A program made the position numbers and the translations under genes. The notes beneath the pieces are model-generated. The model was not told the DNA's origin. It saw only the letters and a program-made list of their open reading frames with translations, and did no database searches. Below, in pieces: positions 2,903 to 26,681 of a stretch of DNA of 26,681 nt. Source of the stretch: an uncultured Gammaproteobacteria bacterium (GTDB taxonomy: Bacteria; Patescibacteriota; Patescibacteriia; UBA2591; UBA6264); the NCBI GenBank assembly GCA_964507075.1, contig CAZDOL010000009.1:1-26681 (forward strand), in the 5' to 3' direction. Position 1 is the first letter of the stretch. The number at the start of each line of letters is the position of its first letter.

Positions 2903-3080
2903 CGACTTTGTCTGATAAAATCAAACCCGTAGGGTGAAGATTTTTCAGCAACAAAGACGACTACCCTGTTAAATACTGCTATGCAGTAATTTCGCCAAAG
3001 GCGAAATTATTTAACAGGGTGCTCAAAAATAAAATAAAATTTAATTCGCTTTGCTCTAAAATTTTAATATTTTTGGCATG
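2900..3080 (+). repeat. Structured intergenic element, copy A (full length, core in 'A/B' orientation)
   Basis: Runs from TAG at 2900, the stop of the upstream ORF, to ATG at 3078, the rsmI start. Hairpin module 2912-2948. Core 2963-3020, bounded by ACCCTGTTAAAT / ATTTAACAGGGT. Right arm 3021-3077. Its flanks are near-identical to copy D (26314-26493). Confidence 0.9.
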
Positions 3081-3756: not shown

Positions 3757-5262
3757 ATGAAAAAATTTTACATCACCACTCCTATTTATTATGTTAATGA
3801 TTATCCTCATTTAGGTCATGCTTATTCTACTATTGCTGCTGATGTTTTGGCTAGATTTCATAGAATGAAAGGAGAGGAAGTATTTTTTCTGACCGGCACT
3901 GATGAACATGGCGCTAAAGTAGCTCAGATGGCTACTGAAAAGAAAATGGAGCCTCAAAAATTATGCGATCAAATTTCAGCTAAGTATGAAAAGGTTTGGG
4001 ATACTCTAAAAATTTCTTATGATAATTTCATCAGGACGACCAATTCCGAACACAAGAAAATAGTTGCTAAGGTTTTGCAGATATTGAACGACAAGAAGCT
4101 GATTTATAAGAGTGTTTACAAAGGACTTTATTGTGTCGCTTGCGAAAGGTATTATACTCCCAAAGAACTAATTAACGGAGAATGTCCTATCCACAAGAAA
4201 AAAGCAATCAGCTTATCTGAAGATTGCTATTTTTTTAAATTGTCGGTCTTTCAAGAAAAATTACTGAAACTAATCAAAAAAGGCGAGTTAATTATTGAAC
4301 CTATAGAAAGAAGGAAGGAACTTCTTAGTTTTTTAGAGTTGAATAAGTTAGAGGATTTAGCTATTTCTAGAACCAATGTAAAGTGGGGGATTTCTCTTCC
4401 TTGGGACCCAAAGCAGACTATTTATGTTTGGGTAGATGCTTTATTAAATTATCTTTCTGGTTTGGGATGGAATGGCAAAGTAAATCAAATACCAGAACAA
4501 TGGCCGCCAGATGTTCAGTTGTTGGGTAAAGATATATTAAGATTTCACGCTGTTATTTGGCCAGCTTTGCTTTTGGCCTTAAATATTCCATTGCCACGCA
4601 AATTATATATCCACGGTTTTTTTACAATCAATGGACAAAAAATGGGCAAATCTATGGGAAATGCTATTGACCCCGAAGAAATGGCAACAATTTTTGGTGT
4701 AGACGCTTTGCGCTGGCTGATACTTTCCTCCTTTCCTTTTGGTCGTGATGGTGATATCTCGCAATCCAAGTTCTATGATAAATATAACGCAGATTTATCT
4801 AATGGTCTGGGAAATTTATTGAGAAGAGTTTTGTCTTTAGCGGAAAAAGCTAATGAGAATTTTTTGTCCTCTAAAAATATTGAGCAAAAATTTCAAAAAG
4901 AAATTAAAGTTTTATGGAAAAATTATGATATCTTTTTTAACGAATTAAAATTTGAAACAATCACGACAAGCATTCAAAACTTTATAGGATTTTGTGATCG
5001 TTATGTTGACAAGAACGAACCATGGAAATTATTTAAGGATAATTTTAAGCAGTACAAGAATGTAATTTATAATCTATTGGAAAGTTTGCGTCATATTGCT
5101 TGGTTAATTCAGCCCTTTATGCCCGATAAAAGCGACGAAATTTTTAAAAGTTTAGGCCTGGAAAATTCAGAAAAAGAAAAATCTTTATCCATTGGACAAC
5201 AATGGGGAAAAACAGAATTTACAAATGTATCCCAAGGAAAAATCTTATTCCCCCGTTTATAG
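3757..5262 (+). CDS. metG: Methionine--tRNA ligase (short form without a C-terminal tRNA-binding appendage)
   Basis: HIGH-type motif (YPHLGHAYS). KMSKS-type motif (KMGKSMGN). Zinc knuckle CVACE...CPIH. Anticodon-binding region with NEPWKL. Confidence 0.95.
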   Translation: MKKFYITTPIYYVNDYPHLGHAYSTIAADVLARFHRMKGEEVFFLTGTDEHGAKVAQMATEKKMEPQKLCDQISAKYEKVWDTLKISYDNFIRTTNSEHKKIVAKVLQILNDKKLIYKSVYKGLYCVACERYYTPKELINGECPIHKKKAISLSEDCYFFKLSVFQEKLLKLIKKGELIIEPIERRKELLSFLELNKLEDLAISRTNVKWGISLPWDPKQTIYVWVDALLNYLSGLGWNGKVNQIPEQWPPDVQLLGKDILRFHAVIWPALLLALNIPLPRKLYIHGFFTINGQKMGKSMGNAIDPEEMATIFGVDALRWLILSSFPFGRDGDISQSKFYDKYNADLSNGLGNLLRRVLSLAEKANENFLSSKNIEQKFQKEIKVLWKNYDIFFNELKFETITTSIQNFIGFCDRYVDKNEPWKLFKDNFKQYKNVIYNLLESLRHIAWLIQPFMPDKSDEIFKSLGLENSEKEKSLSIGQQWGKTEFTNVSQGKILFPRL

Positions 5263-5889: not shown

Positions 5890-8800
5890 ATGAGGAATAT
5901 CAGCAAGATTAGAAAAAGAAATGGAAAAGTAGTAAATTTTAACAAGATTAAAATTACTGAAGCTATTTATAAAGCCATTTTTGCCGTAAAAGGTGAGGAT
6001 GGAAAAGATTCCAAAAAATTAACAGAGAAGGTGGTTAAAATAGTTGCTAATCGTTTTCCAGATAAAGTACCTGGAGTGGAGGATATTCAGGATATTGTAG
6101 AACAGGTTTTAATCCATGCTGATTTAGCTGATGTAGCTCGTGCTTACATTCTTTATCGTGAAAAGAGGCGTGAAGCTAGAGAAATTATTGGAGAAGAAGA
6201 TAAAAGTGTGGATATGGTTAATAAATATTTAGCGGAAGCAGATTGGGAAATAAAAGAGAATGCTAATATGACTTTTTCTTTGCAAGGATTGAATAATTAT
6301 ATTTCTGGATTGGCTAGCAAAAAATATTGGCTTAATAAAATTTATCCCAAAGAAATTAGAGAAGCAATTCATTCGGGCAGTTTCCATATTCACGATCTTA
6401 GTTGCTTAGGTACTTATTGCATGGGTTGGGATTTGCATGGTTTATTGTTGAAAGGATTTACTGGCGTTTTTGGAAAAATATCTTCTAAACCAGCCAAGCA
6501 TTTTCGTCCAGCTTTAGGTCAGGTTGTCAATTTTTTTTATACCCTTCAGGGAGAAGCTGCTGGAGCAGAAGCTTTTTCTTCTTTTGATACTTATTTAGCT
6601 CCTTTTATTGCTTACGACAAATTGAATTATAAAGAAGTTAAACAAGCAATTCAAGAATTCTTGTTCAATTGCAATGTTCCGACACGGGTAGGCTTTCAGT
6701 GTGTTTCTAAAGATACTGAAATCCTCACTAAGAATGGATGGGCAAAATATAATCAAGTTAAGAAAAATGATATTATCGCTACATTTAATATAGAAAATGG
6801 TTGTATTGAATATTTGCCAGTGAATAATATTTTTCAAAAGAATTATAAAGGGAAAATGTATAATTTGAAAAACAGGATTAGCGACCAATTAATTTCACCA
6901 AAACATCGCGTCGTAAGAAAGAAATTTGGTTCAAATTCATATATTTTAGAAAAAATTGAGGATGTTCTTAAATTAAAATCCCCATTTATTGTTCCTGTGG
7001 GGAGTAATGGAAATATAAAAGAAAAAAGCATTGATAAAAATATTATTAAATTAATTGCTTGGGTCGTGTCAGAAGGCACTTTAGATAAAGGAGAGCGGGG
7101 TTCTGGCAGGATTAGTATTTATCAATCACGTATTAAAAATAGGAAAAATTATCAAGAAATATTATCTATTTGTCATGGTTTAAATTTAAAATATACCGAA
7201 AGATCACAACTTGGATTAGGGCAAGAATGTATGGTTATTAGATTTGATGCCAACGGCACAAGAAAGATTCTAAAATATTTTGGTTCAGACAAAGAAAAAG
7301 GAGTAAAGTTTATTCCTCAAAGTATAATTAATTGTGGAAGAGAATCAGCCAAGTTATTTTTAGAGACCTACATTAAGGGTGATGGTTATAATGGATGTAA
7401 AATTATGACCACTTCAGCACAGATAAGAGACTCTCTTTTGCATGTGATTGTTAATGCTGGTTTTGGAGCAACTGTTTCGGTTCGTCATCCAGATAATGCT
7501 TTATCTAAAAAAGATAGATATATTATCAGGATGATTCAACATAAAGATACTTATATTGATACCGTTGAAGAAATTGAATATAGCGGTATTATTTGGTGTC
7601 CAAATACATCCAATGAAACCGTGATAGCCAAAAGAAACGGCAAAATTTTTATTACAGGGAATACTCCATTTTCAAACATCACACTTGATTTAAGGGTGCC
7701 TAAAAATATGGCTAAATTACCTGTAATTATTGGCGGAAAAGCTCAGGACAGGACTTATGGAGAATTTCAGAAAGAAATGAATATGCTGAACAAAGCTTTT
7801 TATGAAATTATTATGGAAGGGGATGCCGACCAGAGAGTTTTTACTTTCCCTATTCCCACCATTAACATTACTAAGGATTTTGATTGGGATAATCCTGCTT
7901 ATAAGCCGATGTGGGAGGCAACAGCTAAATACGGCATTAACTATTTTTCCAATTTTATAAACTCTGACCTTGACCCAGAAGACATCAGAAGTATGTGTTG
8001 CCGTCTTAGAATCGACAACAAAGAACTCCATCATAGAGGTGGGGGTCTTTTTGGTAGCGCTCCACTTACGGGAAGCACGGGAGTTGTAACCATCAATCTG
8101 CCTCAAATTGGTTATTTATCCAAAACTAAAAAAGAATTTTGGGAACGGTTAGGACATTTAATGGATTTAGCAAAAGAAAGTTTAGAAATTAAGAGAAAAG
8201 TTCTGGAGGGTTTTATGGACAAAGGTCTTTATCCATATTCTAAATTTTACCTTTCTGAGATTAAAAAATTACGCAAAAGTTACTTGGCTAATCATTTTTC
8301 AACAATCGGATTAGTGGGTTTAAATGAAGCTTTATTAAATTTTATGGGGGAAGATATTGTTTCTGAAAAAGGAAGAAAATTTGCTCTAAAAATTTTGGAT
8401 TTTATGCGTGATTGTTTATTAGAATATCAAAAAGAAACCAACCAAATTTATAATTTAGAGGCTACGCCGGCCGAAGGCACGAGTTACCGTTTAGCAAAAA
8501 TGGACAAGGAAAAATATCCGGATATTATTACGGCTGGCACTAGCGCTCCTTATTACACAAATTCTAGCCAATTACCAGTTGATTACCAAGGGGGATTATT
8601 AGAGGCCCTAAAATTACAAGATGAGTTTCAAATAAAGTATACTGGAGGAACTGTTTTCCATGCATTTTTAGGAGAAAAAATTTCCGATGTTAGTGTAGTT
8701 AAATCATTGATTAAAAAAGTTTTTACCAAATTTCATTTACCATATTTTAGCTTTACTCCAACTTTTAGTATTTGCCCCAATCACGGTTATCTTAGTGGAG

Positions 8801-8940
8801 AACATTTTATTTGTCCTCAGTGCAATGCTCGTGCTGAAGTTTATTCTCGCATTGTCGGTTATTTAAGGCCGGTCCAACAATGGCATAAAGGAAAGCAAGA
8901 AGAATATTCAGAAAGAAAGAATTTTAAGCCGTCCTTATGA
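5890..8940 (+). CDS. nrdD: Anaerobic (class III) ribonucleoside-triphosphate reductase NrdD, interrupted in frame by a 321-aa intein
   Basis: N-terminal ATP-cone. Thiyl-radical loop SMCCRLRI. C-terminal zinc site CPNHGY...CPQCN. Glycyl-radical motif RIVGYLRPV. The extein is about 695 aa once the intein is removed. Confidence 0.92.
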   Translation: MRNISKIRKRNGKVVNFNKIKITEAIYKAIFAVKGEDGKDSKKLTEKVVKIVANRFPDKVPGVEDIQDIVEQVLIHADLADVARAYILYREKRREAREIIGEEDKSVDMVNKYLAEADWEIKENANMTFSLQGLNNYISGLASKKYWLNKIYPKEIREAIHSGSFHIHDLSCLGTYCMGWDLHGLLLKGFTGVFGKISSKPAKHFRPALGQVVNFFYTLQGEAAGAEAFSSFDTYLAPFIAYDKLNYKEVKQAIQEFLFNCNVPTRVGFQCVSKDTEILTKNGWAKYNQVKKNDIIATFNIENGCIEYLPVNNIFQKNYKGKMYNLKNRISDQLISPKHRVVRKKFGSNSYILEKIEDVLKLKSPFIVPVGSNGNIKEKSIDKNIIKLIAWVVSEGTLDKGERGSGRISIYQSRIKNRKNYQEILSICHGLNLKYTERSQLGLGQECMVIRFDANGTRKILKYFGSDKEKGVKFIPQSIINCGRESAKLFLETYIKGDGYNGCKIMTTSAQIRDSLLHVIVNAGFGATVSVRHPDNALSKKDRYIIRMIQHKDTYIDTVEEIEYSGIIWCPNTSNETVIAKRNGKIFITGNTPFSNITLDLRVPKNMAKLPVIIGGKAQDRTYGEFQKEMNMLNKAFYEIIMEGDADQRVFTFPIPTINITKDFDWDNPAYKPMWEATAKYGINYFSNFINSDLDPEDIRSMCCRLRIDNKELHHRGGGLFGSAPLTGSTGVVTINLPQIGYLSKTKKEFWERLGHLMDLAKESLEIKRKVLEGFMDKGLYPYSKFYLSEIKKLRKSYLANHFSTIGLVGLNEALLNFMGEDIVSEKGRKFALKILDFMRDCLLEYQKETNQIYNLEATPAEGTSYRLAKMDKEKYPDIITAGTSAPYYTNSSQLPVDYQGGLLEALKLQDEFQIKYTGGTVFHAFLGEKISDVSVVKSLIKKVFTKFHLPYFSFTPTFSICPNHGYLSGEHFICPQCNARAEVYSRIVGYLRPVQQWHKGKQEEYSERKNFKPSL
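6700..7662 (+). mobile_element. Intein with a double-motif LAGLIDADG homing endonuclease domain inside NrdD
   Basis: Starts at Cys (CVSKDTEILTKNG, block A). Block B-like motif SPKH. LAGLIDADG-like motifs LIAWVVSEGTL and LFLETYIKGDGY. Ends ...KIFITGN, followed by the +1 nucleophile Thr (TPFSNITLD). The flanking extein sequence reads VPTRVGFQ|TPFSNITLD. Confidence 0.85.
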
Positions 8941-9667: not shown

Positions 9668-11080
9668 ATGTTTTTCAAAAAAATATTTTCTCCATCAAAA
9701 CCTGATTTTCTTAAAAAAGAGAAAGAGGAAGAGGAAGGAAAGGTGATTTGGACAGAGAAAAAACCAGCGCCCAAAAAGAAAAAACCAGGCACTTTTTTTA
9801 CCCTTCGTTTCAAATTAAGGCCTATTATGGGTGTAATGTTAGTTAGTATGATTATTGGCGCGATAGCTGGCGGTTTTGCCGGATATTATGCTGGTAGTTA
9901 TTTTCTGACGGATTTTATTTCTACTTCTTCTATTATTGCCCCACAGGTAATCAGGCATAGTGATAATAATTTATTACCTACTTCAAACCAAGATGCGACT
10001 ATAGCCGTAGAACAGGCAAGTCCATCTGTAGTGAGCATTATAGTTACCAAAGAGATTACTACTTATTACGGCAATCCACAATCCTCATTTGATGATTTTT
10101 TTAAAAATTGGTCTTTTGGTTTTGATGATTTTTTTTATGGCCCACGAATACCAGAAAATTGGGGACCAAATCCACCACAGGAAGAGAAAAAGGAGACACG
10201 ACAAATAGGCGGCGGTACTGGTTTTATTATTTCAAGTGAAGATGGTTTAATCTTGACCAATAAACATGTAGTTTCAGACACAGAAGCAGAATATACTGTT
10301 ATTACAAACGATGGCGAGAAATATGAAGCAGAGGTTTTGGCGCGAGACCCATTTAATGATATTGCGATTTTGAAAGTTCAAGCATCTGATTTATCAGAGA
10401 TTAAATTAGGAGATTCAGATACACTAAAGATTGGACAAACAGTGATAGCTATCGGAAATGCTTTGGGAGAATATCGTAATACAGTTACTAAAGGCGTTAT
10501 TAGTGGTATTAGCAGGCGAGTAATCGCTGGTGATGCTTATGGTTCATCAGAGGTTTTAGAAAATGTAATTCAAACTGACGCAGCTATTAACTTTGGTAAT
10601 TCTGGTGGTCCTTTAATTAATTTGCAAGGAGAAGTAATTGGCATTAACACAGCCATTAATATAGAAGGACAATTAATAGGATTTGCTATTCCAGTTAATC
10701 AAGCTAAGCAAGTTATTGAAAGCGTTAAAGAATATGGTTATATTATTAGACCATACATAGGGGTAAGGTATACATTGATTAATAAGGATATTATTGAGAA
10801 AAATAATTTAGAAGTTAATTACGGAGCTTTAATTGTTCGCGGACCCGAAGAATCTGATTTAGCTGTTATTCCGGGTTCTCCAGCTAATAAAGCAGGTTTA
10901 GCAGAAAATGATATTATTTTGGAGGTTAATGGAGAGAAAATTAACGAAGAATATTCTTTATCTAGGGCTATTCAAAAACATCAACCCGGAGATGAAATAG
11001 AATTAAAAGTTTATCATCAAGGCGAAGAAAAAATAATTAAAGTAATCTTAGAAGAATACAACAAACCAACAGAAGAATAA
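9668..11080 (+). CDS. htrA: HtrA/DegP-family trypsin-like serine protease with a C-terminal PDZ domain, N-terminally membrane anchored
   Basis: Catalytic triad contexts TNKHV, DIAILK and GNSGGPL. PDZ-like segment GSPANKAGLAENDIILEVNG. N-terminal TM helix MGVMLVSMIIGAIAGGFAG. Confidence 0.88.
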   Translation: MFFKKIFSPSKPDFLKKEKEEEEGKVIWTEKKPAPKKKKPGTFFTLRFKLRPIMGVMLVSMIIGAIAGGFAGYYAGSYFLTDFISTSSIIAPQVIRHSDNNLLPTSNQDATIAVEQASPSVVSIIVTKEITTYYGNPQSSFDDFFKNWSFGFDDFFYGPRIPENWGPNPPQEEKKETRQIGGGTGFIISSEDGLILTNKHVVSDTEAEYTVITNDGEKYEAEVLARDPFNDIAILKVQASDLSEIKLGDSDTLKIGQTVIAIGNALGEYRNTVTKGVISGISRRVIAGDAYGSSEVLENVIQTDAAINFGNSGGPLINLQGEVIGINTAINIEGQLIGFAIPVNQAKQVIESVKEYGYIIRPYIGVRYTLINKDIIEKNNLEVNYGALIVRGPEESDLAVIPGSPANKAGLAENDIILEVNGEKINEEYSLSRAIQKHQPGDEIELKVYHQGEEKIIKVILEEYNKPTEE

Positions 11081-11115
11081 TAATAAATATTTAATAAATA
11101 ACTATATATATCACA

Positions 11116-11142
11116 ACACTACAGGGTCTGACCTTGTAGTGT
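11116..11142 (+). terminator. Hairpin of shared 3' module, copy 1 (after htrA)
   Basis: ACACTACAGGGT-CTG-ACCTTGTAGTGT forms a 12-nt-arm hairpin. It is part of a roughly 75-nt module that begins at the last codons and stop (..GAAGAATAA..ATATATATCACAACACT..). The downstream T tract is weak (ATTT). Confidence 0.55.
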
Positions 11143-11144
11143 AT

Positions 11145-11173
11145 TTGACAAAAGCTCTCTTTTTTGCTAATAT
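11145..11173 (+). promoter_or_regulatory. Sigma70-type promoter for the 261-aa gene
   Basis: TTGACA (11145-11150), a 17-nt spacer, then TGC-TAATAT (extended -10, 11165-11173). Confidence 0.55.
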
Positions 11174-11231
11174 CATTAATACTAAGTAATTAAATAACCA
11201 AACAATCTAATTTATTTTAATTATTAAATTT

Positions 11232-12017
11232 ATGATAAGTGAAAAAGATTTTCAACCTCCTGTTGATCCGACGAACACTGAGTCAAAAGAGGACAAAAAA
11301 GAAGAAATAATAGAATCAACAGAAGAAGATGTAATGCCGAACCAGGAAGTAGATTCGCAAGAAGAAAAAGAGAATAAAGGTACAGAAGAAGAAAGAAAAG
11401 TTAAGCTTTCGGAGAGATTTAATGCGATTCAGGACATTATGGATTATAAAAGAATCAAAGAAGGAATGATGTCTGAAAGAGAAAAAAAATATTTTAGTGG
11501 TGCACACAATAGCGTTGATGTTTTTTCCAAATTAGAAGATTATATCCGTGATTGTTTAGAAAAGAATGCGCCTGCTGATGAGATAGAAAAAAATGTGGAT
11601 ATTCTTGAATATAGCGCAGGTGAGTTATTAAAAGATAACCCTAATAGAGAAGAATCAGATAGACGCCTCGCTCAGTTTATTAAAGATAGAATAGATCATT
11701 TTGTAGCTACATTTAATCAACGTATAGAGGTAATAGAAAAATCAGGCATATGCGACTTACAAGAAGAAGCAATTAAAATCGCGAAAGAAAAAATTGATCT
11801 ACTTTTAAAAGATGCAGAAGAAATCATAAAGCAAGGCGTAGAAGATAGAGCAGAGGGGAAGAAATTAAACACAGGAGACGCAAAATTATTGATGAAAGTA
11901 GCCAATGAAATGGAGCATGCTATTCCTGGCGTGGAAGCGAGCCACGAAGCTGCTTTGCTTTTTAGAGCTGATGATTTTAAAGAAGAGAAGCCAGAAGAGA
12001 AGCCAGAAAAAGAATAA
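11232..12017 (+). CDS. Hypothetical acidic E/K-rich protein (261 aa), probably largely helical or coiled; function unknown
   Basis: Long ORF with its own promoter and terminator modules. No motif that I recognise. Its N-terminus MISEKDFQ parallels MIKENDQEFQ of the next unknown gene. Confidence 0.65.
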   Translation: MISEKDFQPPVDPTNTESKEDKKEEIIESTEEDVMPNQEVDSQEEKENKGTEEERKVKLSERFNAIQDIMDYKRIKEGMMSEREKKYFSGAHNSVDVFSKLEDYIRDCLEKNAPADEIEKNVDILEYSAGELLKDNPNREESDRRLAQFIKDRIDHFVATFNQRIEVIEKSGICDLQEEAIKIAKEKIDLLLKDAEEIIKQGVEDRAEGKKLNTGDAKLLMKVANEMEHAIPGVEASHEAALLFRADDFKEEKPEEKPEKE

Positions 12018-12046
12018 AGATTTAAGAAATAATCATATATATCACA

Positions 12047-12073
12047 ACACTACAGGGTCCGACCCTGTAGTGT
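12047..12073 (+). terminator. Hairpin of shared 3' module, copy 2 (after the 261-aa gene)
   Basis: ACACTACAGGGTC-C-GACCCTGTAGTGT has perfect 13-nt arms and is followed by TTTTTGTAT. Confidence 0.7.
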
Positions 12074-12158
12074 TTTTGTATATAGATTGTTTGTGGGGTT
12101 TTTAATATTCTAATATTTTGATATAATATTATATATGGAAATTACAGAGTCTAAATAA
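12074..12158 (+). repeat. Duplicated copy of the prfB promoter and first codons (truncated remnant encoding MEITESK*)
   Basis: TTTTGTATATAG..TTGTGGGGTTTTT..TG-A-TATAAT..ATATATGGAAATTACAGAG matches 13246-13385 (TTTTTTTGTATTATAG..TTGTAGGGTTTTA..TG-G-TATAAT..ATATATGGAAATGACAGAA). ATG at 12135, stop at 12156-12158. Confidence 0.75.
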
Positions 12159-12215: not shown

Positions 12216-12244
12216 TTAACAAAATATATATTTTTTGCTAAAAT
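12216..12244 (+). promoter_or_regulatory. Sigma70-type promoter for the repeat-protein gene (homologous to the one at 11145-11173)
   Basis: TTAACA (12216-12221), a 17-nt spacer, then TGC-TAAAAT (12236-12244). The surrounding TTTTTTGCTAA..CTAA.TAATT..AAATTTATGAT sequence is shared with the upstream region of the 261-aa gene. Confidence 0.5.
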
Positions 12245-12285
12245 TATTGAACTAAATAATTTAATTTGTTCTAATTTTAAAATTT

Positions 12286-13170
12286 ATGATTAAAGAAAAT
12301 GATCAAGAATTTCAAGAAAAAGCTCTTGATTATATCCAAACTCTTTTATATCAAGGTGCAAACAAGGATTTAGTTGCCGAGAATTTAGCTGGGTTAGATT
12401 CAGACAGAGCATGGAAAATGCGAGAAGATTTTTTGGCCCAGGGCGTAGATAAGCGTTGGATTATTTCTGGTTTAGCTGGGTTAAATTCAGACAGAGCATG
12501 GAAAATGCGAGAAGAGCTTTTGTTTCAAGGCGTAAACAAGGATTTAGTTGCTCTGAGTTTAAGTGGTTTAGATTCAGATAGAGCATGGGATATGCGACAA
12601 GATCTTTTGTCTCAAGGCATACACAAGCCTGATATTGTTAGAGGTTTAGTTGGTTTAGATTCAGATAGAGCATGGAAAATGCGAGAAGAATTTTTTTCTA
12701 AGGGCACAGTCAAAGAATCAGTTCCCTTAAGTTTAATTGGTTTAGATTCAGATAGAGCATGGGATATGCGAAAGAGGATTTTGTCTAAAATCTATACTAA
12801 TTTATCTACTCAAGAATTATATCAGAATTGGGTTGCTCAGAGTTTAACTGGTTTAGATTCAGATAGAGCATGGAAAATGCGAGAAAATCTTTTGCTTCGA
12901 AAGGGAACAAGGAATTCAATTACTCAGAGTTTAGCTGGGTTAGATTCAGATAGAGCATGGGACATGAGAGAAAGAATGTTATCTTATGGCGTAAATAACA
13001 ATTGGATTGTTAAAAGTTTAGCTGGGTTAGATTCAGATAGAGCATGGGACATGAGAGAAAATTTTTTGTCTCAAGGCGCAGACGAGGGCCGTGTTGCTCA
13101 AGGAGTTTATGGTGATTATACAATGGTAGGTGTCAGAAAAGCAAGAAGAGATAAAGCAGAACAAGAATAA
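12286..13170 (+). CDS. Hypothetical tandem-repeat protein: eight copies of a 29-residue unit with core GLDSDRAW(K/D)MRE; predicted alpha-solenoid; function unknown
   Basis: Protein-level repeats such as LAGLDSDRAWKMREDFLAQGVDKRWIISG. The fifth unit is 37 aa. Alternating conserved hydrophobic and charged positions suggest a helical hairpin repeat. Confidence 0.75.
   Translation: MIKENDQEFQEKALDYIQTLLYQGANKDLVAENLAGLDSDRAWKMREDFLAQGVDKRWIISGLAGLNSDRAWKMREELLFQGVNKDLVALSLSGLDSDRAWDMRQDLLSQGIHKPDIVRGLVGLDSDRAWKMREEFFSKGTVKESVPLSLIGLDSDRAWDMRKRILSKIYTNLSTQELYQNWVAQSLTGLDSDRAWKMRENLLLRKGTRNSITQSLAGLDSDRAWDMRERMLSYGVNNNWIVKSLAGLDSDRAWDMRENFLSQGADEGRVAQGVYGDYTMVGVRKARRDKAEQE
12388..13107 (+). repeat. 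Intragenic 87-nt tandem repeat array (8 units; unit 5 is 111 nt)
   Basis: Units start at 12388, 12475, 12562, 12649, 12736, 12847, 12934 and 13021. The core GG(G/T)TTAGATTCAGA(C/T)AGAGCATGGGA/AAA.ATG is almost invariant at the nucleotide level. Confidence 0.9.
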
Positions 13171-13195
13171 ATATTTCAAAAATAATTATATACAT

Positions 13196-13250
13196 CTCAA
13201 CACTCCAGAGCTGTACCCCGTTCTACGGGGTCTGACCTTGTAGTGTTTTT
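13196..13250 (+). terminator. Shared 3' module, copy 3 (after the repeat-protein gene), with an internal insertion
   Basis: Sequence is CTCAACACT-CCAGAGCTGTACCCCGTT-CTACGGGGTCTGACCTTGTAGTGT followed by TTTTTTT. It carries about 18 extra nt relative to copies 1 and 2. A CCCCG-TTCTA-CGGGG hairpin lies at 13216-13230. Confidence 0.6.
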
Positions 13251-24024: not shown

Positions 24025-24318
24025 ATGTCTAGATCACTTAAAAAGGGACCTTGGGTGGACCCAAAATTATTAAAGAAAATATCCAAATTAAAATCAGGAG
24101 ACAAGACAATTATAAAAACTTGGTCTCGTAGTTCAACTATTATTCCAGAAATGGTAGGTTTTGTTTTTGGTGTTCATAATGGAAAAATTCATATTCCTGT
24201 TTCAATTTCTGAAAATATGATTGGCCATAAGTTGGGTGAGTTCTCTTTGACTAAAAATTTTGTCAAACACGGAGGAAAGATGCAAAAAGCTCTAGAAACG
24301 GCTGCTAAGAAAAAATAA
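24025..24318 (+). CDS. rpsS: 30S ribosomal protein S19
   Basis: [12 protein letters not shown]...[17 protein letters not shown]. Confidence 0.95.
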
Positions 24319-24336
24319 TAATTATAAAATTTTTTT

Positions 24337-24936
24337 ATGCAAGTGCAAGCTCGAAGTAAGTATTTAAAAATCTCGGCCAAGAAAATGAGATTAGTGGCTG
24401 TAACTATTAAAGGAATGGATGTTTCTTATGCTTTAGATTATTTGAAATTCATTCCCCATAAAGCATCACCGTTAGTTTCTAAACTTCTTCATTCAGCCAT
24501 AGCTAACGCTGAGCATAATTTTAATCTTGATAGTCATAATCTATTTGTAAAAAAAATCTTTGCTGACGAAGGAACAATGCTTAAAAGGTGGCGCGCTAGA
24601 GCGTTTGGTAGAGCTACTCCTATACATAAAAAAAGTTCGCATTTAACAATTATTTTAGAAGAAAAAGTTCCTAGCAAGCAACAACATAAATCAAACGACA
24701 ATAAATTAAAAGAACCTTCTGTTTTAAAGACTGATTTGCATGAAACAAAAATAAAACCTTTAGAAAGTGTACATTCTGGGAAATTAGAGAAAGATGAAAT
24801 AGAAGAAGAAACTAAAGAGGGCAGAGACAGTCAGGAACAAGATAATAAATATCGCAAAAAACAAAATCTTAAGCGAGTTCAGAATAAATCTAAAGCCATA
24901 ACACTAAAAAAGATTTTCAGAAGAAAAAGTATTTAA
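24337..24936 (+). CDS. rplV: 50S ribosomal protein L22 with a charged C-terminal extension of about 90 aa
   Basis: The L22 core runs through ...RWRARAFGRATPIHKKSSHLTIILEE. It is followed by a K/E/Q-rich tail. Confidence 0.92.
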   Translation: MQVQARSKYLKISAKKMRLVAVTIKGMDVSYALDYLKFIPHKASPLVSKLLHSAIANAEHNFNLDSHNLFVKKIFADEGTMLKRWRARAFGRATPIHKKSSHLTIILEEKVPSKQQHKSNDNKLKEPSVLKTDLHETKIKPLESVHSGKLEKDEIEEETKEGRDSQEQDNKYRKKQNLKRVQNKSKAITLKKIFRRKSI

Positions 24937-25117
24937 AGGGCTTTGTCTGATAAAATCAAACCCGCAGGGTGAAGATTTTTCAGCAACAAAACCTTTACCC
25001 TGTTAAATACTGCTACGCAGTAATTTCGCCAGAGGCGAAATTATTTAACAGGGTACTCAAATTTGAAACGAAATTTCCTTCGTTACTTCGTAACTCGTAA
25101 ATTTAGACAAATTTAGT
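24937..25117 (+). repeat. Structured intergenic element, copy B (core in 'A/B' orientation, divergent right arm)
   Basis: Hairpin module 24947-24983. Core 24997-25054 (ACCCTGTTAAAT...ATTTAACAGGGT). The right arm differs from copies A and D and contains its own hairpin, AACGAA-ATTTCC-TTCGTT. Confidence 0.9.
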
Positions 25118-25768
25118 ATGGGCAGAAAAGTAAATCCAAAAATTTTCCGCATCCCGCTTATTAATCAGTGGGATTCAAAGTGGTTCGCTAGTAAAAATAA
25201 ATTCCGCCATTTTTTGGAGGAAGATTTACGAATTAGAAAATTTTTAAAGACAAAATTAAAAAATTGCGGAATTTCTAAAATAACTATAGAAAGATTTGCA
25301 GGAACATTTAGGGTAATAATTCATACCGCTAAACCTGGTTTGATTATTGGTAGAGGTGGCCTTGATATTGAAAAGCTAAAGAAGGTAATCAAGCTAAATT
25401 TTTTAAAAAATAAAGATTTGAATTTAGAAATTAATGTCATAGAAGAAAAATCACCTTTGTTAGCCGCAGAAGTAGTGTTAGAAGGAGCAATTTTGGAGTT
25501 AGAAAAAAGGATGCCATATAGACGAGTGTTGAAAAAGGTTATCAAGCAGGTTCAGGACGGAAAAGCTAATGGGGTTAAAATTATAGTCAAGGGACGTTTG
25601 GGCGGTGCCGAAATAGCCAGATCAGAAAAAGCGATCTGGGGAAATCTCCCCCTTCATACTCTACGCGCTGACATAGATTATGCTCGTGGAGTGGCAGCCA
25701 CTACCTATGGTTCTATTGGCGTTAAGGTTTGGATTTATAAAGGAGAGAAGTTTAGTAATTCTGTCTGA
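25118..25768 (+). CDS. rpsC: 30S ribosomal protein S3
   Basis: MGRKVNPKIFR...KH domain...GRLGGAEIARSE. The stop TGA (25766-25768) lies inside the repeat element's conserved TGTCTGATA. Confidence 0.95.
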   Translation: MGRKVNPKIFRIPLINQWDSKWFASKNKFRHFLEEDLRIRKFLKTKLKNCGISKITIERFAGTFRVIIHTAKPGLIIGRGGLDIEKLKKVIKLNFLKNKDLNLEINVIEEKSPLLAAEVVLEGAILELEKRMPYRRVLKKVIKQVQDGKANGVKIIVKGRLGGAEIARSEKAIWGNLPLHTLRADIDYARGVAATTYGSIGVKVWIYKGEKFSNSV

Positions 25769-25902
25769 TATTTTTAAGTCCGCAGGACGCAGAAAATTCA
25801 GCTACAGAATTGCTACCCTGTTAAATAATTTCGCCTTTGGCGAAATTGCCACGGAGTGGCATTTAACAGGGTGCTCAAAAATTAATAAATTAATTTTTTC
25901 GC
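25762..25902 (+). repeat. Structured intergenic element, copy C (core in 'C/D' orientation, short right arm, covarying hairpin module)
   Basis: Hairpin module 25765-25801. Core 25815-25872. Right arm GCTCAAAAATTAATAAATTAATTTTTTCGC runs up to ATG 25903. Confidence 0.9.
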
Positions 25903-26316
25903 ATGTTAATGCCCAAAAAGTTAAAACATCGCAAAAGTCATAAAGGACGCGCTAGGGGTAAGAGGATAGCCACTAGAGGTACGAGGGTTAGCTTTGGAGA
26001 TTTTGGATTAAAAGGATTGGATTTTTCTTGGATTACTTCTAGACAGATTGAGTCAGCTCGTCGCACCATAACTCATTCTCTGGCCAAAACTGGAAAGGTA
26101 TGGATTAGGATATTCCCACATAAACCAGTGACAGCTAAGGGAGCAGAAGTACCAATGGGCGGTGGTAAGGGAGCAGTTGATCATTATGTGGCGGTAGTTA
26201 AACCAGGTACTGTTCTTTTTGAGGTTGCTGGGGTTGAAGAAACAGTTGCTAAAGAAGCTTTTCGTTTAGCTTCGCATAAACTACCCGTAAAAACAAAGTT
26301 TGTTTATAGGGTATAG
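25903..26316 (+). CDS. rplP: 50S ribosomal protein L16
   Basis: [16 protein letters not shown]...; typical L16 over its whole length. Confidence 0.96.
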
Positions 26317-26493
26317 CGACTTTGTCTGATAAAATTGAACCCGCAGGGTGAAAATTTTTCAGCCACAAAGACGCTACCCTGTTAAATAATTTCGCTTACA
26401 GCGAAATTGCCGCAGAGCGGCATTTAACAGGGTGCTCAAAAATCTAATAAAATTTAATTCGCTTCGCTCTAAAATTTTAACATTTTTGGCATG
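26314..26493 (+). repeat. Structured intergenic element, copy D (full length, core in 'C/D' orientation)
   Basis: Runs from TAG 26314-26316, the rplP stop, to ATG 26491, the rpmC start. Hairpin module 26326-26362. Core 26376-26433. The right arm differs from copy A at only 4 positions. Confidence 0.9.
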
Positions 26494-26676
26494 AAAATAT
26501 CTGAATTTAAAGCAAAAACAAAACAAGAATTGCAAAAAATATGTAGATCTGAACAGGAAAAGTTGAGACTATTGCGTTTTGACATTAAACTCAAACAATC
26601 TAAAAATGTGAGAGAAATACGAAAAACTAGAAAGCTAATTTCTCAGATGTTAACAATTTTGAACACAAAAAAATGA
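26491..26676 (+). CDS. rpmC: 50S ribosomal protein L29
   Basis: Size of 61 aa, position after rplP, and ELQKICRSEQEKLRLLRFDIKLKQSKNVREIRKTRKLISQMLTIL. Confidence 0.9.
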   Translation: MKISEFKAKTKQELQKICRSEQEKLRLLRFDIKLKQSKNVREIRKTRKLISQMLTILNTKK

Positions 26677-26681
26677 TCAAT
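26673..26681 (+). CDS. Possible start of 30S ribosomal protein S17 (ATGA overlap with the rpmC stop); only 3 codons are in the window
   Basis: ATG at 26673 overlaps TGA at 26674-26676. S17 normally follows L29. There is far too little sequence to confirm this. Confidence 0.25.

Follow-up and report, generated by a model that had tools for sequence, protein, structure and literature searches.

A nested palindromic core found in two orientations in the gene spacers of a Patescibacteriota contig

The contig CAZDOL010000009.1 (assembly GCA_964507075.1), from an uncultured bacterium placed by GTDB within the Patescibacteriota, contains four copies of a 58-nt palindromic core, two in one orientation and two in the other, relative to flanking sequences which do not change direction. 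The copy under study, core C, is located at 25815-25872; the window, as used below, is the whole stretch of DNA analysed, 26,681 nucleotides in length. The question raised by this locus is how the two orientations arose. The original prediction, made from the letters alone, had listed three possibilities: a site-specific invertible segment, or mini-inverton, a nested palindromic mobile module inserting in either orientation, and the shuffling of modules by recombination. The orientation turned out to be fixed at the four window loci, so that the element does not act as a genetic switch. The origin favoured for the two classes is the insertion of a mobile nested palindrome, or the exchange of its interior, without regard to orientation; evolutionary in-place flipping through the arms is a possible contributor, and a regulated inverton is very unlikely.

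Structure and orientation of the window cores

The 12-mer ACCCTGTTAAAT occurs eight times over both strands of the window, at 2963/3009, 24997/25043, 25815/25861 and 26376/26422; the count expected from shuffles of the window is 0.22, and none of 100 shuffles reached eight. The occurrences form four inverted pairs, delimiting four 58-nt cores (A to D) with perfect 12-bp arms, exactly where they had been predicted. Between the arms of each core, a 34-bp interior is made of two abutting hairpins, of 13 and 21 nt. In core A (2963-3020) and core B (24997-25054) the small hairpin comes first, reading ACTGC-TAT-GCAGT in A and having a TAC loop in B, and is followed by AATTTCGCC-AAA-GGCGAAATT, with AGA as the loop in B. 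Core C has arms ACCCTGTTAAAT and ATTTAACAGGGT, and its order on the + strand is large to small, AATTTCGCC-TTT-GGCGAAATT and then GCCAC-GGA-GTGGC; core D (26376-26433) is arranged likewise, AATTTCGCT-TAC-AGCGAAATT preceding GCCGC-AGA-GCGGC. No strand is assigned to the cores themselves.

The opposite order of the hairpins in the two classes, already read from the sequence, was confirmed by the strand scores of a covariance model built in the small-then-large order. Cores A and B score 85-86 bits on the + strand versus 44-46 on the - strand, and cores C and D score 86-87 bits on the - strand versus 35-37 on the + strand (85.9 and 37.3, respectively, for core C alone). The model detects no core besides A to D in the window and none in the 5.4 kb upstream; a single extra copy, named E, is found in the 10 kb downstream, making five copies in about 52 kb. 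As had been noticed, the 21-nt hairpin of C matches that of A when flipped, loop included (TTT versus AAA). The small hairpins of the two classes differ at three of five stem pairs, which bears out the early warning that the classes are not simple flips of one another.

Each window core forms the central part of a composite, about 135-175 nt long, which occupies the entire spacer from the stop codon of one gene to the start codon of the next. Its parts are, in order, the left hairpin, irregular and about 50 nt long, a short linker, the core, the sequence GCTCAAAAAT (ACTCAAATTT in B) and an AT-rich tail reaching the ATG. The flanking modules, left hairpin and right arm, keep a single orientation in all four copies, as the first reading had held.

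The orientation at each locus was compared among related contigs, whose sources are metagenomes of lakes and groundwater and a single NCBI assembly. Nine contigs of different samples were retrieved through the L16 protein, and ten, including the independent NCBI assembly, through the TP_methylase protein. Core A is identical in 10 contigs out of 10, and cores B, C and D show the same sequence and orientation in every covering contig (8, 9 and 9, respectively); this comparison uses consensus assemblies, in which rare flipped reads would escape detection. A scan of a metagenome contig collection for flipped C and D alleles gave no match and is uninformative, since the native C and D control gave none either. 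No recombinase or transposase was found within about 52 kb around the copies, and the Pfam content of the window and its extensions is housekeeping only.

An active site-specific inverton, in which the 34-bp segment would be turned over between its 12-bp inverted repeats by a recombinase acting within the population, is what perfect inverted repeats around a segment seen in both orientations relative to its flanks would suggest, and it was the first option of the original prediction. It is a tempting reading but a wrong one, and a phase-variable mini-inverton has to be withdrawn from the list, because the loci are identical across the 8-10 covering assemblies and no recombinase lies within the distance searched. 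The 34-bp interior contains nothing obvious to switch, neither a promoter nor a coding segment, and is too short for the synapsis of two sites on duplex DNA; the orientation classes are not exact flips, and the same architecture is also found in frame inside genes. Taken together, these points leave an active inverton barely conceivable.

Family members and evidence for mobility

The pattern CCTGTTAAAT-N28-42-ATTTAACAGG was scanned in a collection of species-representative genomes, and at least 120 genome stretches matched; family counts given below are those among the matches listed. The matches come from many lineages of the Candidate Phyla Radiation (CPR), from Omnitrophota, from WOR-3/Stahlbacteria and from Desulfobacterales, and a few of them, in Peribacillus and Pedobacter, look like chance hairpins. 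The typical form is ttYAC-CCTGTTAAAT-(hairpin)(hairpin)-ATTTAACAGG-GTRaa, with terminal inverted repeats of 12-17 bp, (T)YAC-CCTGTTAAAT ... ATTTAACAGG-GTR(A), around a filler of about 34 bp; in other genomes the arms reach 15-22 bp. Two hairpins are formed by 91 of the 131 distinct interiors; 76 of these 91 make a three-way junction without any unpaired base, and 134 of their 182 loops are 3 nt long. Matches retrieved by the covariance model only carry arm variants, which are always compensated (CCCCGTTAAAT/ATTTAACGGGG and CCCTGTGAAAT/ATTTCACAGGG). In WOR-3 the interior is not hairpinned, and the element lies between 8-bp direct repeats (ATCTGCGT-type, ATCTGYGK). The whole composite form is common to several genomes labelled Patescibacteria/CPR (L013, L057, L099, L118, L040, L069, L027, L045, L105 and L108). 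A single match was obtained from 2.9 million viral contigs; it is non-palindromic, lies inside a coding sequence and looks like chance. A full-text search of the available literature for the arm sequence, and for palindromic or miniature inverted-repeat transposable elements (MITEs) in CPR or Parcubacteria, found no description.

In at least 14 of the 120 listed loci (L010, L018, L062, L075, L114, L118, L122 and others) the element lies inside S10-spc-alpha ribosomal protein operons, at varying spacers: S10/L3, L2/S19, S19/L22, S17/L14, L14/L24 and S13/S11. The element is estimated to be enriched several-fold in such operons, a rough figure which is open to sampling bias.

Some of the listed loci display further features. 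At one WOR-3 locus (L087, 6190-6330) a second, unrelated repeat, AATCTGTCCCGCTTTCTTCGGGATCCCGCCAAAGGC, is present in two copies between two cores. In two unrelated genomes (L041, 7329-7390; L065, 1050-1130) the core is directly followed by GTGAAG(C)TTATCCACA; TTATCCACA is a perfect DnaA-box-like 9-mer, also found inside the long core interior of L049, and its presence may be a coincidence.

The cores behave as mobile units in several respects. They are found nested in the hairpin position of other cores (L069, L091 and L038) and in tandem (L016). Direct repeats of roughly 7-8 bp are a frequent accompaniment: those of at least 7 nt, within 16 nt of both sides, are found at 25 of 129 copies, versus 2-4 of 129 in controls in which one side was displaced by 40 nt; when WOR-3-type flanks are left aside, the figures are 13 of 100 versus 2-4 of 100. 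Twelve of 138 copies lie inside long open frames, 11 of them being independent, as one palindromic contig is counted twice. These in-gene copies translate as PVKS...FNRVK or TLLN...LTG. All eight host open reading frames (ORFs) scanned against Pfam are real conserved proteins, including Amidase/GatA (in L012), RsmA (in L020), group-1 glycosyltransferases, DsbD_2, LeuRS and a DNA polymerase III delta-like protein; the domain match extends across the insert in several of them. The contig counted twice (L011, JAHJJO010000063.1) is, over its whole length, a perfect palindrome with two inverted copies of one LeuRS gene, and is probably a fold-back assembly artefact; besides the in-frame core, its LeuRS contains a NUDIX domain insert.

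The composite is gained or lost as a unit between near-identical strains. Copy E, in the L14/L24 spacer just past the right end of the window, is present in four contigs (L001, 11427-11600) and absent from four others (empty allele, L004, 2990-2996), the flanks of filled and empty contigs being 99.8-99.97% identical over 11.8 kb. The empty junction reads TAG-AAATTTT-ATG and the filled one TAG-CGATTTT(166 nt)T-ATG, with no target duplication. Copies A, D and E all run from TAG|CGAYTTTG to TTTTTSGY|ATGAA and share their exact ends; therefore the entire spacer behaves as a unit.

All-against-all clustering of the 799 ORFs from the 120 listed loci revealed no recurrent transposase or recombinase, every recurrent family being housekeeping. 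An enzyme that could act on these hairpins, as the original prediction had suggested looking for, was found neither there nor within about 52 kb of this genome, and the behaviour of the family is that of non-autonomous mobile DNA. The original prediction had not foreseen the family in several phyla, the gain and loss of whole composites or the apparently DNA-level structure.

Origin of the two orientations

The comparison of interiors and flanks among the five copies bears directly on the two orientations. The interiors of A and B are 94% identical, and their right arms only 61%. Copies A and D, whose close flanks and opposite cores had been noticed from the start, share 88% of the left and 93% of the right flank; identity between their interiors is 54% as found and rises to 74% after one of them is flipped. 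Copies D and E have flanks 93% and 86% identical around unrelated interiors (54% as they stand, 49% flipped). These identities show that interior and flank have decoupled histories among A to E, in support of the module shuffling listed in the original prediction. A single in-place flip is therefore insufficient, and interior replacement or core re-insertion is needed; either process is possible in both orientations, because the two arms are inverted copies of one sequence.

The GCCGC small hairpin occurs in both orders within the same composite frame (L013 versus window D, L099 and L118), and therefore the classes are not two old lineages, each locked to one orientation. Against in-situ inversion, the original prediction had set loci fixed in one orientation together with two old, independently propagating subfamilies; the fixed orientation was found in all covering assemblies, and the separate subfamilies were not.

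The evidence tilts, by a modest preponderance, towards the core being a miniature, non-autonomous mobile DNA element, a T-shaped nested palindrome inserted or exchanged without regard to orientation and moved in trans. With identical inverted ends, it would present no intrinsic polarity to a machinery inserting it or copying its interior. Either orientation could then result from insertion, or from replacement of the interior with another copy as template through the identical arms, and the two classes would be produced in this way; mobilisation in trans might be due to a staggered-cut (DDE-like) enzyme encoded elsewhere in the genome or on another replicon. The nesting, tandems, direct repeats, in-frame insertions and equal hairpin orders seen in other genomes support the mobile module of the original prediction.

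A number of points weigh against this interpretation. Strong target specificity would be needed for cores to insert independently at exactly one nucleotide position in every composite, and interior exchange would have to pass through 12-bp arms, shorter than is usual for RecA-dependent recombination. The flanking repeats vary, being 6-9 nt long and 1-7 nt away from the arms, and are missing from most copies; in some lineages they form part of the conserved flanks of the composite, and a fixed target-site duplication is not established. The sole empty/filled pair, that of E, concerns a composite of 166-174 nt rather than a bare core, and its junction is not that of a clean insertion. The invariance of ten arm bases is partly imposed by the search pattern. 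Lastly, no autonomous partner or transposase with matching ends was found in the 799 neighbouring ORFs or in the 52 kb of this genome.

In-place flipping over evolutionary time, in which composites are duplicated together with their core and the interior is later inverted between the 12-bp arms, by intramolecular recombination or by template switching during replication, is unlikely but credible. Parallels would be the flip/flop states of hairpin termini and the small inversions of hairpin loops known from the spacers of chloroplast genomes, and inversions of this kind are known to use perfect short inverted repeats as a substrate. The better match of the A and D interiors when flipped, between near-identical flanks, is what this process predicts, as is the match of the 21-nt hairpin down to its loop; moreover, small hairpins which are exact reverse complements occur in the same frame, GCCGC-TCT-GCGGC in L013 and GCCGC-AGA-GCGGC in L099 and L118. 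Nevertheless, the small hairpins of A and D differ at three of five stem pairs, no flipped allele is seen among 8-10 assemblies per locus, and the D/E pair, with similar flanks and unrelated interiors, needs interior replacement anyway. Quite unlikely, in our judgement, is a further account, in which the arm duplex of the T-fold would be the substrate of a structure-specific enzyme common to CPR bacteria, Omnitrophota, WOR-3 and Desulfobacterales, moving or copying the element through a folded single-strand or hairpin intermediate; composites would perhaps be co-opted as stop-to-start "punctuation" with an outward promoter. If true, it would account for the indifference of the interiors to orientation, for the perfect compensation with no G-U intermediates, for the nesting of cores within cores and for the occurrence in several phyla in the absence of a linked transposase, and a hairpin-intermediate mechanism would be a chromosomal analogue of parvoviral flip/flop hairpin transfer. 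The core might also be a binding or action site of a conserved host DNA protein (a Xer-type recombinase, gyrase or another structure-specific enzyme), kept through recognition of its arms, rather than a transposon of its own. The arms are conserved across phyla around free interiors, their variants are always compensated, no element-encoded enzyme was found, and TGTTAAAT equals the XerD arm of E. coli dif over its outer 8 nt. This account is very improbable, as no conserved 28-bp Xer layout (a second arm and a 6-8-bp spacer) stands beside the arms in A to E or in the family, the element is multicopy and inserts in genes, and the search pattern imposes part of the arm conservation.

The remaining alternative, decidedly improbable, is a functional structured RNA in the polycistronic ribosomal protein mRNA, acting as a processing, stabilising or insulating element or as the bearer of an internal promoter, for which the order of the hairpins would be neutral. 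The five copies A to E, mostly in the S10-spc ribosomal protein operon, are all on the coding strand, each filling the spacer from stop to start codon between two co-directional genes; very high stability is predicted for the RNA folds (-48 to -52 kcal/mol, z-scores -6.6 to -8.1), and copies recur in the ribosomal protein operons of other genomes, at varying spacers. In addition, TTAACA-N17/18-TAAAAT/TATAAT is retained in the composites of several genomes (L013, L069 and L027), although promoter-like sites are no more frequent in the window than in its shuffles (7 versus 6.7). Pairing was analysed on 140 distinct aligned sequences: 98.3% of the pair cells are complementary, versus 77.9% in shuffles and 37-48% when the partner was slid by 1-3 columns. 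All 14 inner pairs have two-sided changes (648 cells, versus 152 in shuffles), and one-sided (G-U) states are nearly absent despite this massive covariation, contrary to what an RNA would lead one to expect. Nor is there a preference for the sense strand over the family, in copies between co-directional genes or inside genes: sense-strand oppositions are G-T in 67 cases and A-C in 49, with no significant bias; hairpin order, taken from intergenic copies, is small-first in 20 and large-first in 19; and the flank asymmetry T..G versus C..A is 17 versus 21. Rfam 15 gave only tRNAs at gathering score and only noise at E-values up to 10. The in-frame copies inside ORFs, and the presence or absence of E among near-identical strains, likewise speak against a functional RNA. 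The lack of strand preference and of G-U intermediates, together with the mostly 3-nt loops and the junction without unpaired bases, favours a palindrome which would be structured at the DNA rather than at the RNA level.

Known systems, significance and genomic setting

The mobile nested palindrome favoured above was compared with known families. Like MITEs (e.g. Correia/NEMIS of Neisseria), it is about 60-170 bp long, non-coding and multicopy with insertion polymorphism, has terminal inverted repeats around a short interior, is often flanked by short direct repeats, lies mostly between genes and within operons, varies in presence among strains and has a possible outward -35-like hexamer in its terminal repeat. 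Unlike them, the core family has no known cognate full-length insertion sequence, its flanking repeats are irregular, its interior is made of two freely varying, compensated mini-palindromes, it nests within itself and it extends over several phyla.

The Rickettsia palindromic elements (RPEs) were reportedly described by Ogata et al. in 2000 as selfish palindromes in frame inside conserved protein genes. In common with RPEs, the cores persist in frame within genes, adding a short peptide ("PVKS...FNRVK" or "TLLN...LTG"), and are also intergenic. They differ in sequence and host range, in length (about 55-65 bp versus 100-150 bp), in the T-shaped two-hairpin interior and in the sharply conserved arms. 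As only the in-frame behaviour is common, with no sequence relationship and another host clade, the cores are not members of the RPE family.

The composites resemble the enterobacterial mosaics of repetitive extragenic palindromes (REPs), known as bacterial interspersed mosaic elements (BIMEs), and the REPIN-RAYT system, in which RAYT stands for REP-associated tyrosine transposase. A composite, too, combines palindromic units with conserved linkers in a mosaic, immediately downstream of stop codons within operons, and its palindromic unit is found in both orientations; the core, however, is a nested three-way palindrome and not a simple imperfect hairpin. According to PMC3733652, a REP is a palindrome of 20-40 bp which bears at one end a conserved tetranucleotide tag, GTAG or CGTC. 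The core ends, (T)YAC-CCTG...CAGG-GTR, carry no such tag, GTAG occurring only in the left-hairpin loop of A and E; the cores are not strictly extragenic, and no RAYT gene was seen among the 799 neighbouring ORFs. On the first two of these grounds they were not assigned to the REP/RAYT system.

The inverted terminal repeat of the parvovirus adeno-associated virus (AAV) offers the closest likeness in shape, with a long outer palindrome around two short ones, 3-nt loops of AAA/TTT type and two inner orders. The AAV repeats are, however, the ends of a linear single-stranded genome, flipping and flopping by Rep-nicked hairpin transfer, whereas no Rep/HUH gene or nick site was identified for the cores, the two core states are not exact inversions, and all copies lie between or within genes internal to chromosomal contigs; a parvovirus-type terminus was rejected on this ground of location, in spite of the T-shape. 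Invertons such as fimS, hin/hix and the Bacteroides invertible promoters also have a segment bounded by inverted repeats, but the core loci show no heterogeneity among the covering assemblies, no recombinase within about 52 kb and no promoter, and their segment is 34 bp. Integron attC sites (5'-RYYYAAC ... GTTRRRY-3') were discarded as well: the order is reversed in the core, GTTAAAT ... ATTTAAC on both strands, and the flanking genes encode ribosomal proteins and are not cassettes. The same holds for dif/Xer sites, with an 11-bp arm, a 6-8-bp centre and an 11-bp arm in a single copy per replicon, given that only 8 nt are alike, no partner arm is present and the element is multicopy.

The genomes of CPR bacteria (Patescibacteria) are held to be extremely streamlined and to contain little mobile DNA. 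The family described here colonises the most conserved operon of these bacteria, S10-spc, and varies there between strains which are 99.8-99.97% identical; its in-frame copies sit in essential enzymes, a behaviour first described for Rickettsia palindromic elements, and one arm sequence is common to several deeply separated phyla of the same anoxic habitats. By adding peptides of 18-22 residues to conserved proteins and spacers of 130-180 nt to operons, the elements affect gene calling and marker-gene alignments, and they may cause metagenome assemblies to break or fold. They offer a convenient marker for variation among strains, and the activity which mobilises them is a lead to a DNA-handling enzyme common to uncultured lineages.

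The window is gene-dense and has every gene on one strand, including those for tRNAs, DnaJ, MetRS, NrdD, RF, GlmS, ComEC and EF-Tu and the S10 operon. The tRNA/tmRNA search found one gene only, a tRNA-Trp at 256-327. All composites are on the + strand. Composite C occupies the S3/L16 spacer. Its left hairpin module (25757-25811) carries compensated changes relative to A, B and D, and contains the last few S3 codons and the S3 stop codon TGA (25766-25768); A, B and D, likewise, begin at the upstream stop codon or overlap it. The right arm of C (25873-25902) consists of GCTCAAAAAT and the AT-rich tail, and extends up to the L16 start codon at 25903. Composite A (2903-3077) runs from the DUF8128 stop codon to the TP_methylase ATG, with the left hairpin at 2906-2956 and the right arm at 3021-3077. 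Composite B (24937-25117), in the L22-S3 spacer, has its left hairpin at 24938-24994 and a divergent right arm with small hairpins of its own. Composite D (26317-26490), in the L16-L29 spacer, has its left hairpin at 26320-26370 and a right arm which shares 93% identity with that of A. Within the right arm of the core, TTAACA is followed after 17-18 nt by TAAAAT, TAAATT or TATAAT, which resembles an outward -35/-10 pair; such promoter-like pairs lie at 25863-25891 (core C, TTAACA, 17 nt, TAAATT), at 26424-26453 and also at 3011-3040, the first two overlapping the right arms of C and D. No intrinsic terminator was predicted within 24300-26681.

Several minor variants were noticed among the related contigs. 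In one population variant, a 28-nt palindromic insertion, GGTTCTGCGAGTGGAGCGAGCAGA..., is present in the DnaJ/DUF8128 spacer (L133, about 4404-4437, versus L131, about 4019-4025; about 1510-1520 in the window). In one contig (L135, about 2572-2760), about 143 nt of additional AT-rich sequence with "tagaattt" repeats, in the tRNA/L33 gap that immediately precedes the window, replace about 18 nt of the other contigs and are unrelated to the core family. The NrdD gene (1016 aa; 5890-8940 in the window) is called as two ORFs, of 577 and 439 aa, in one assembly (L137, 5081-8130), reflecting either a frameshift variant or an assembly error. Within the window, tandem repeats of 87 nt (12272-13168) are found in the ORF at 12286-13170. 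A repeated intergenic module of another kind stands after each of three consecutive genes, at 11074-11147, 12005-12078 and 13158-13231; it is made of a GC-rich hairpin, CACAACACTACAGGGTC...GACCCTGTAGTGT, and a T-run, and is terminator-like, and the upstream leaders are repeated too (11188-11249 and 12242-12303).

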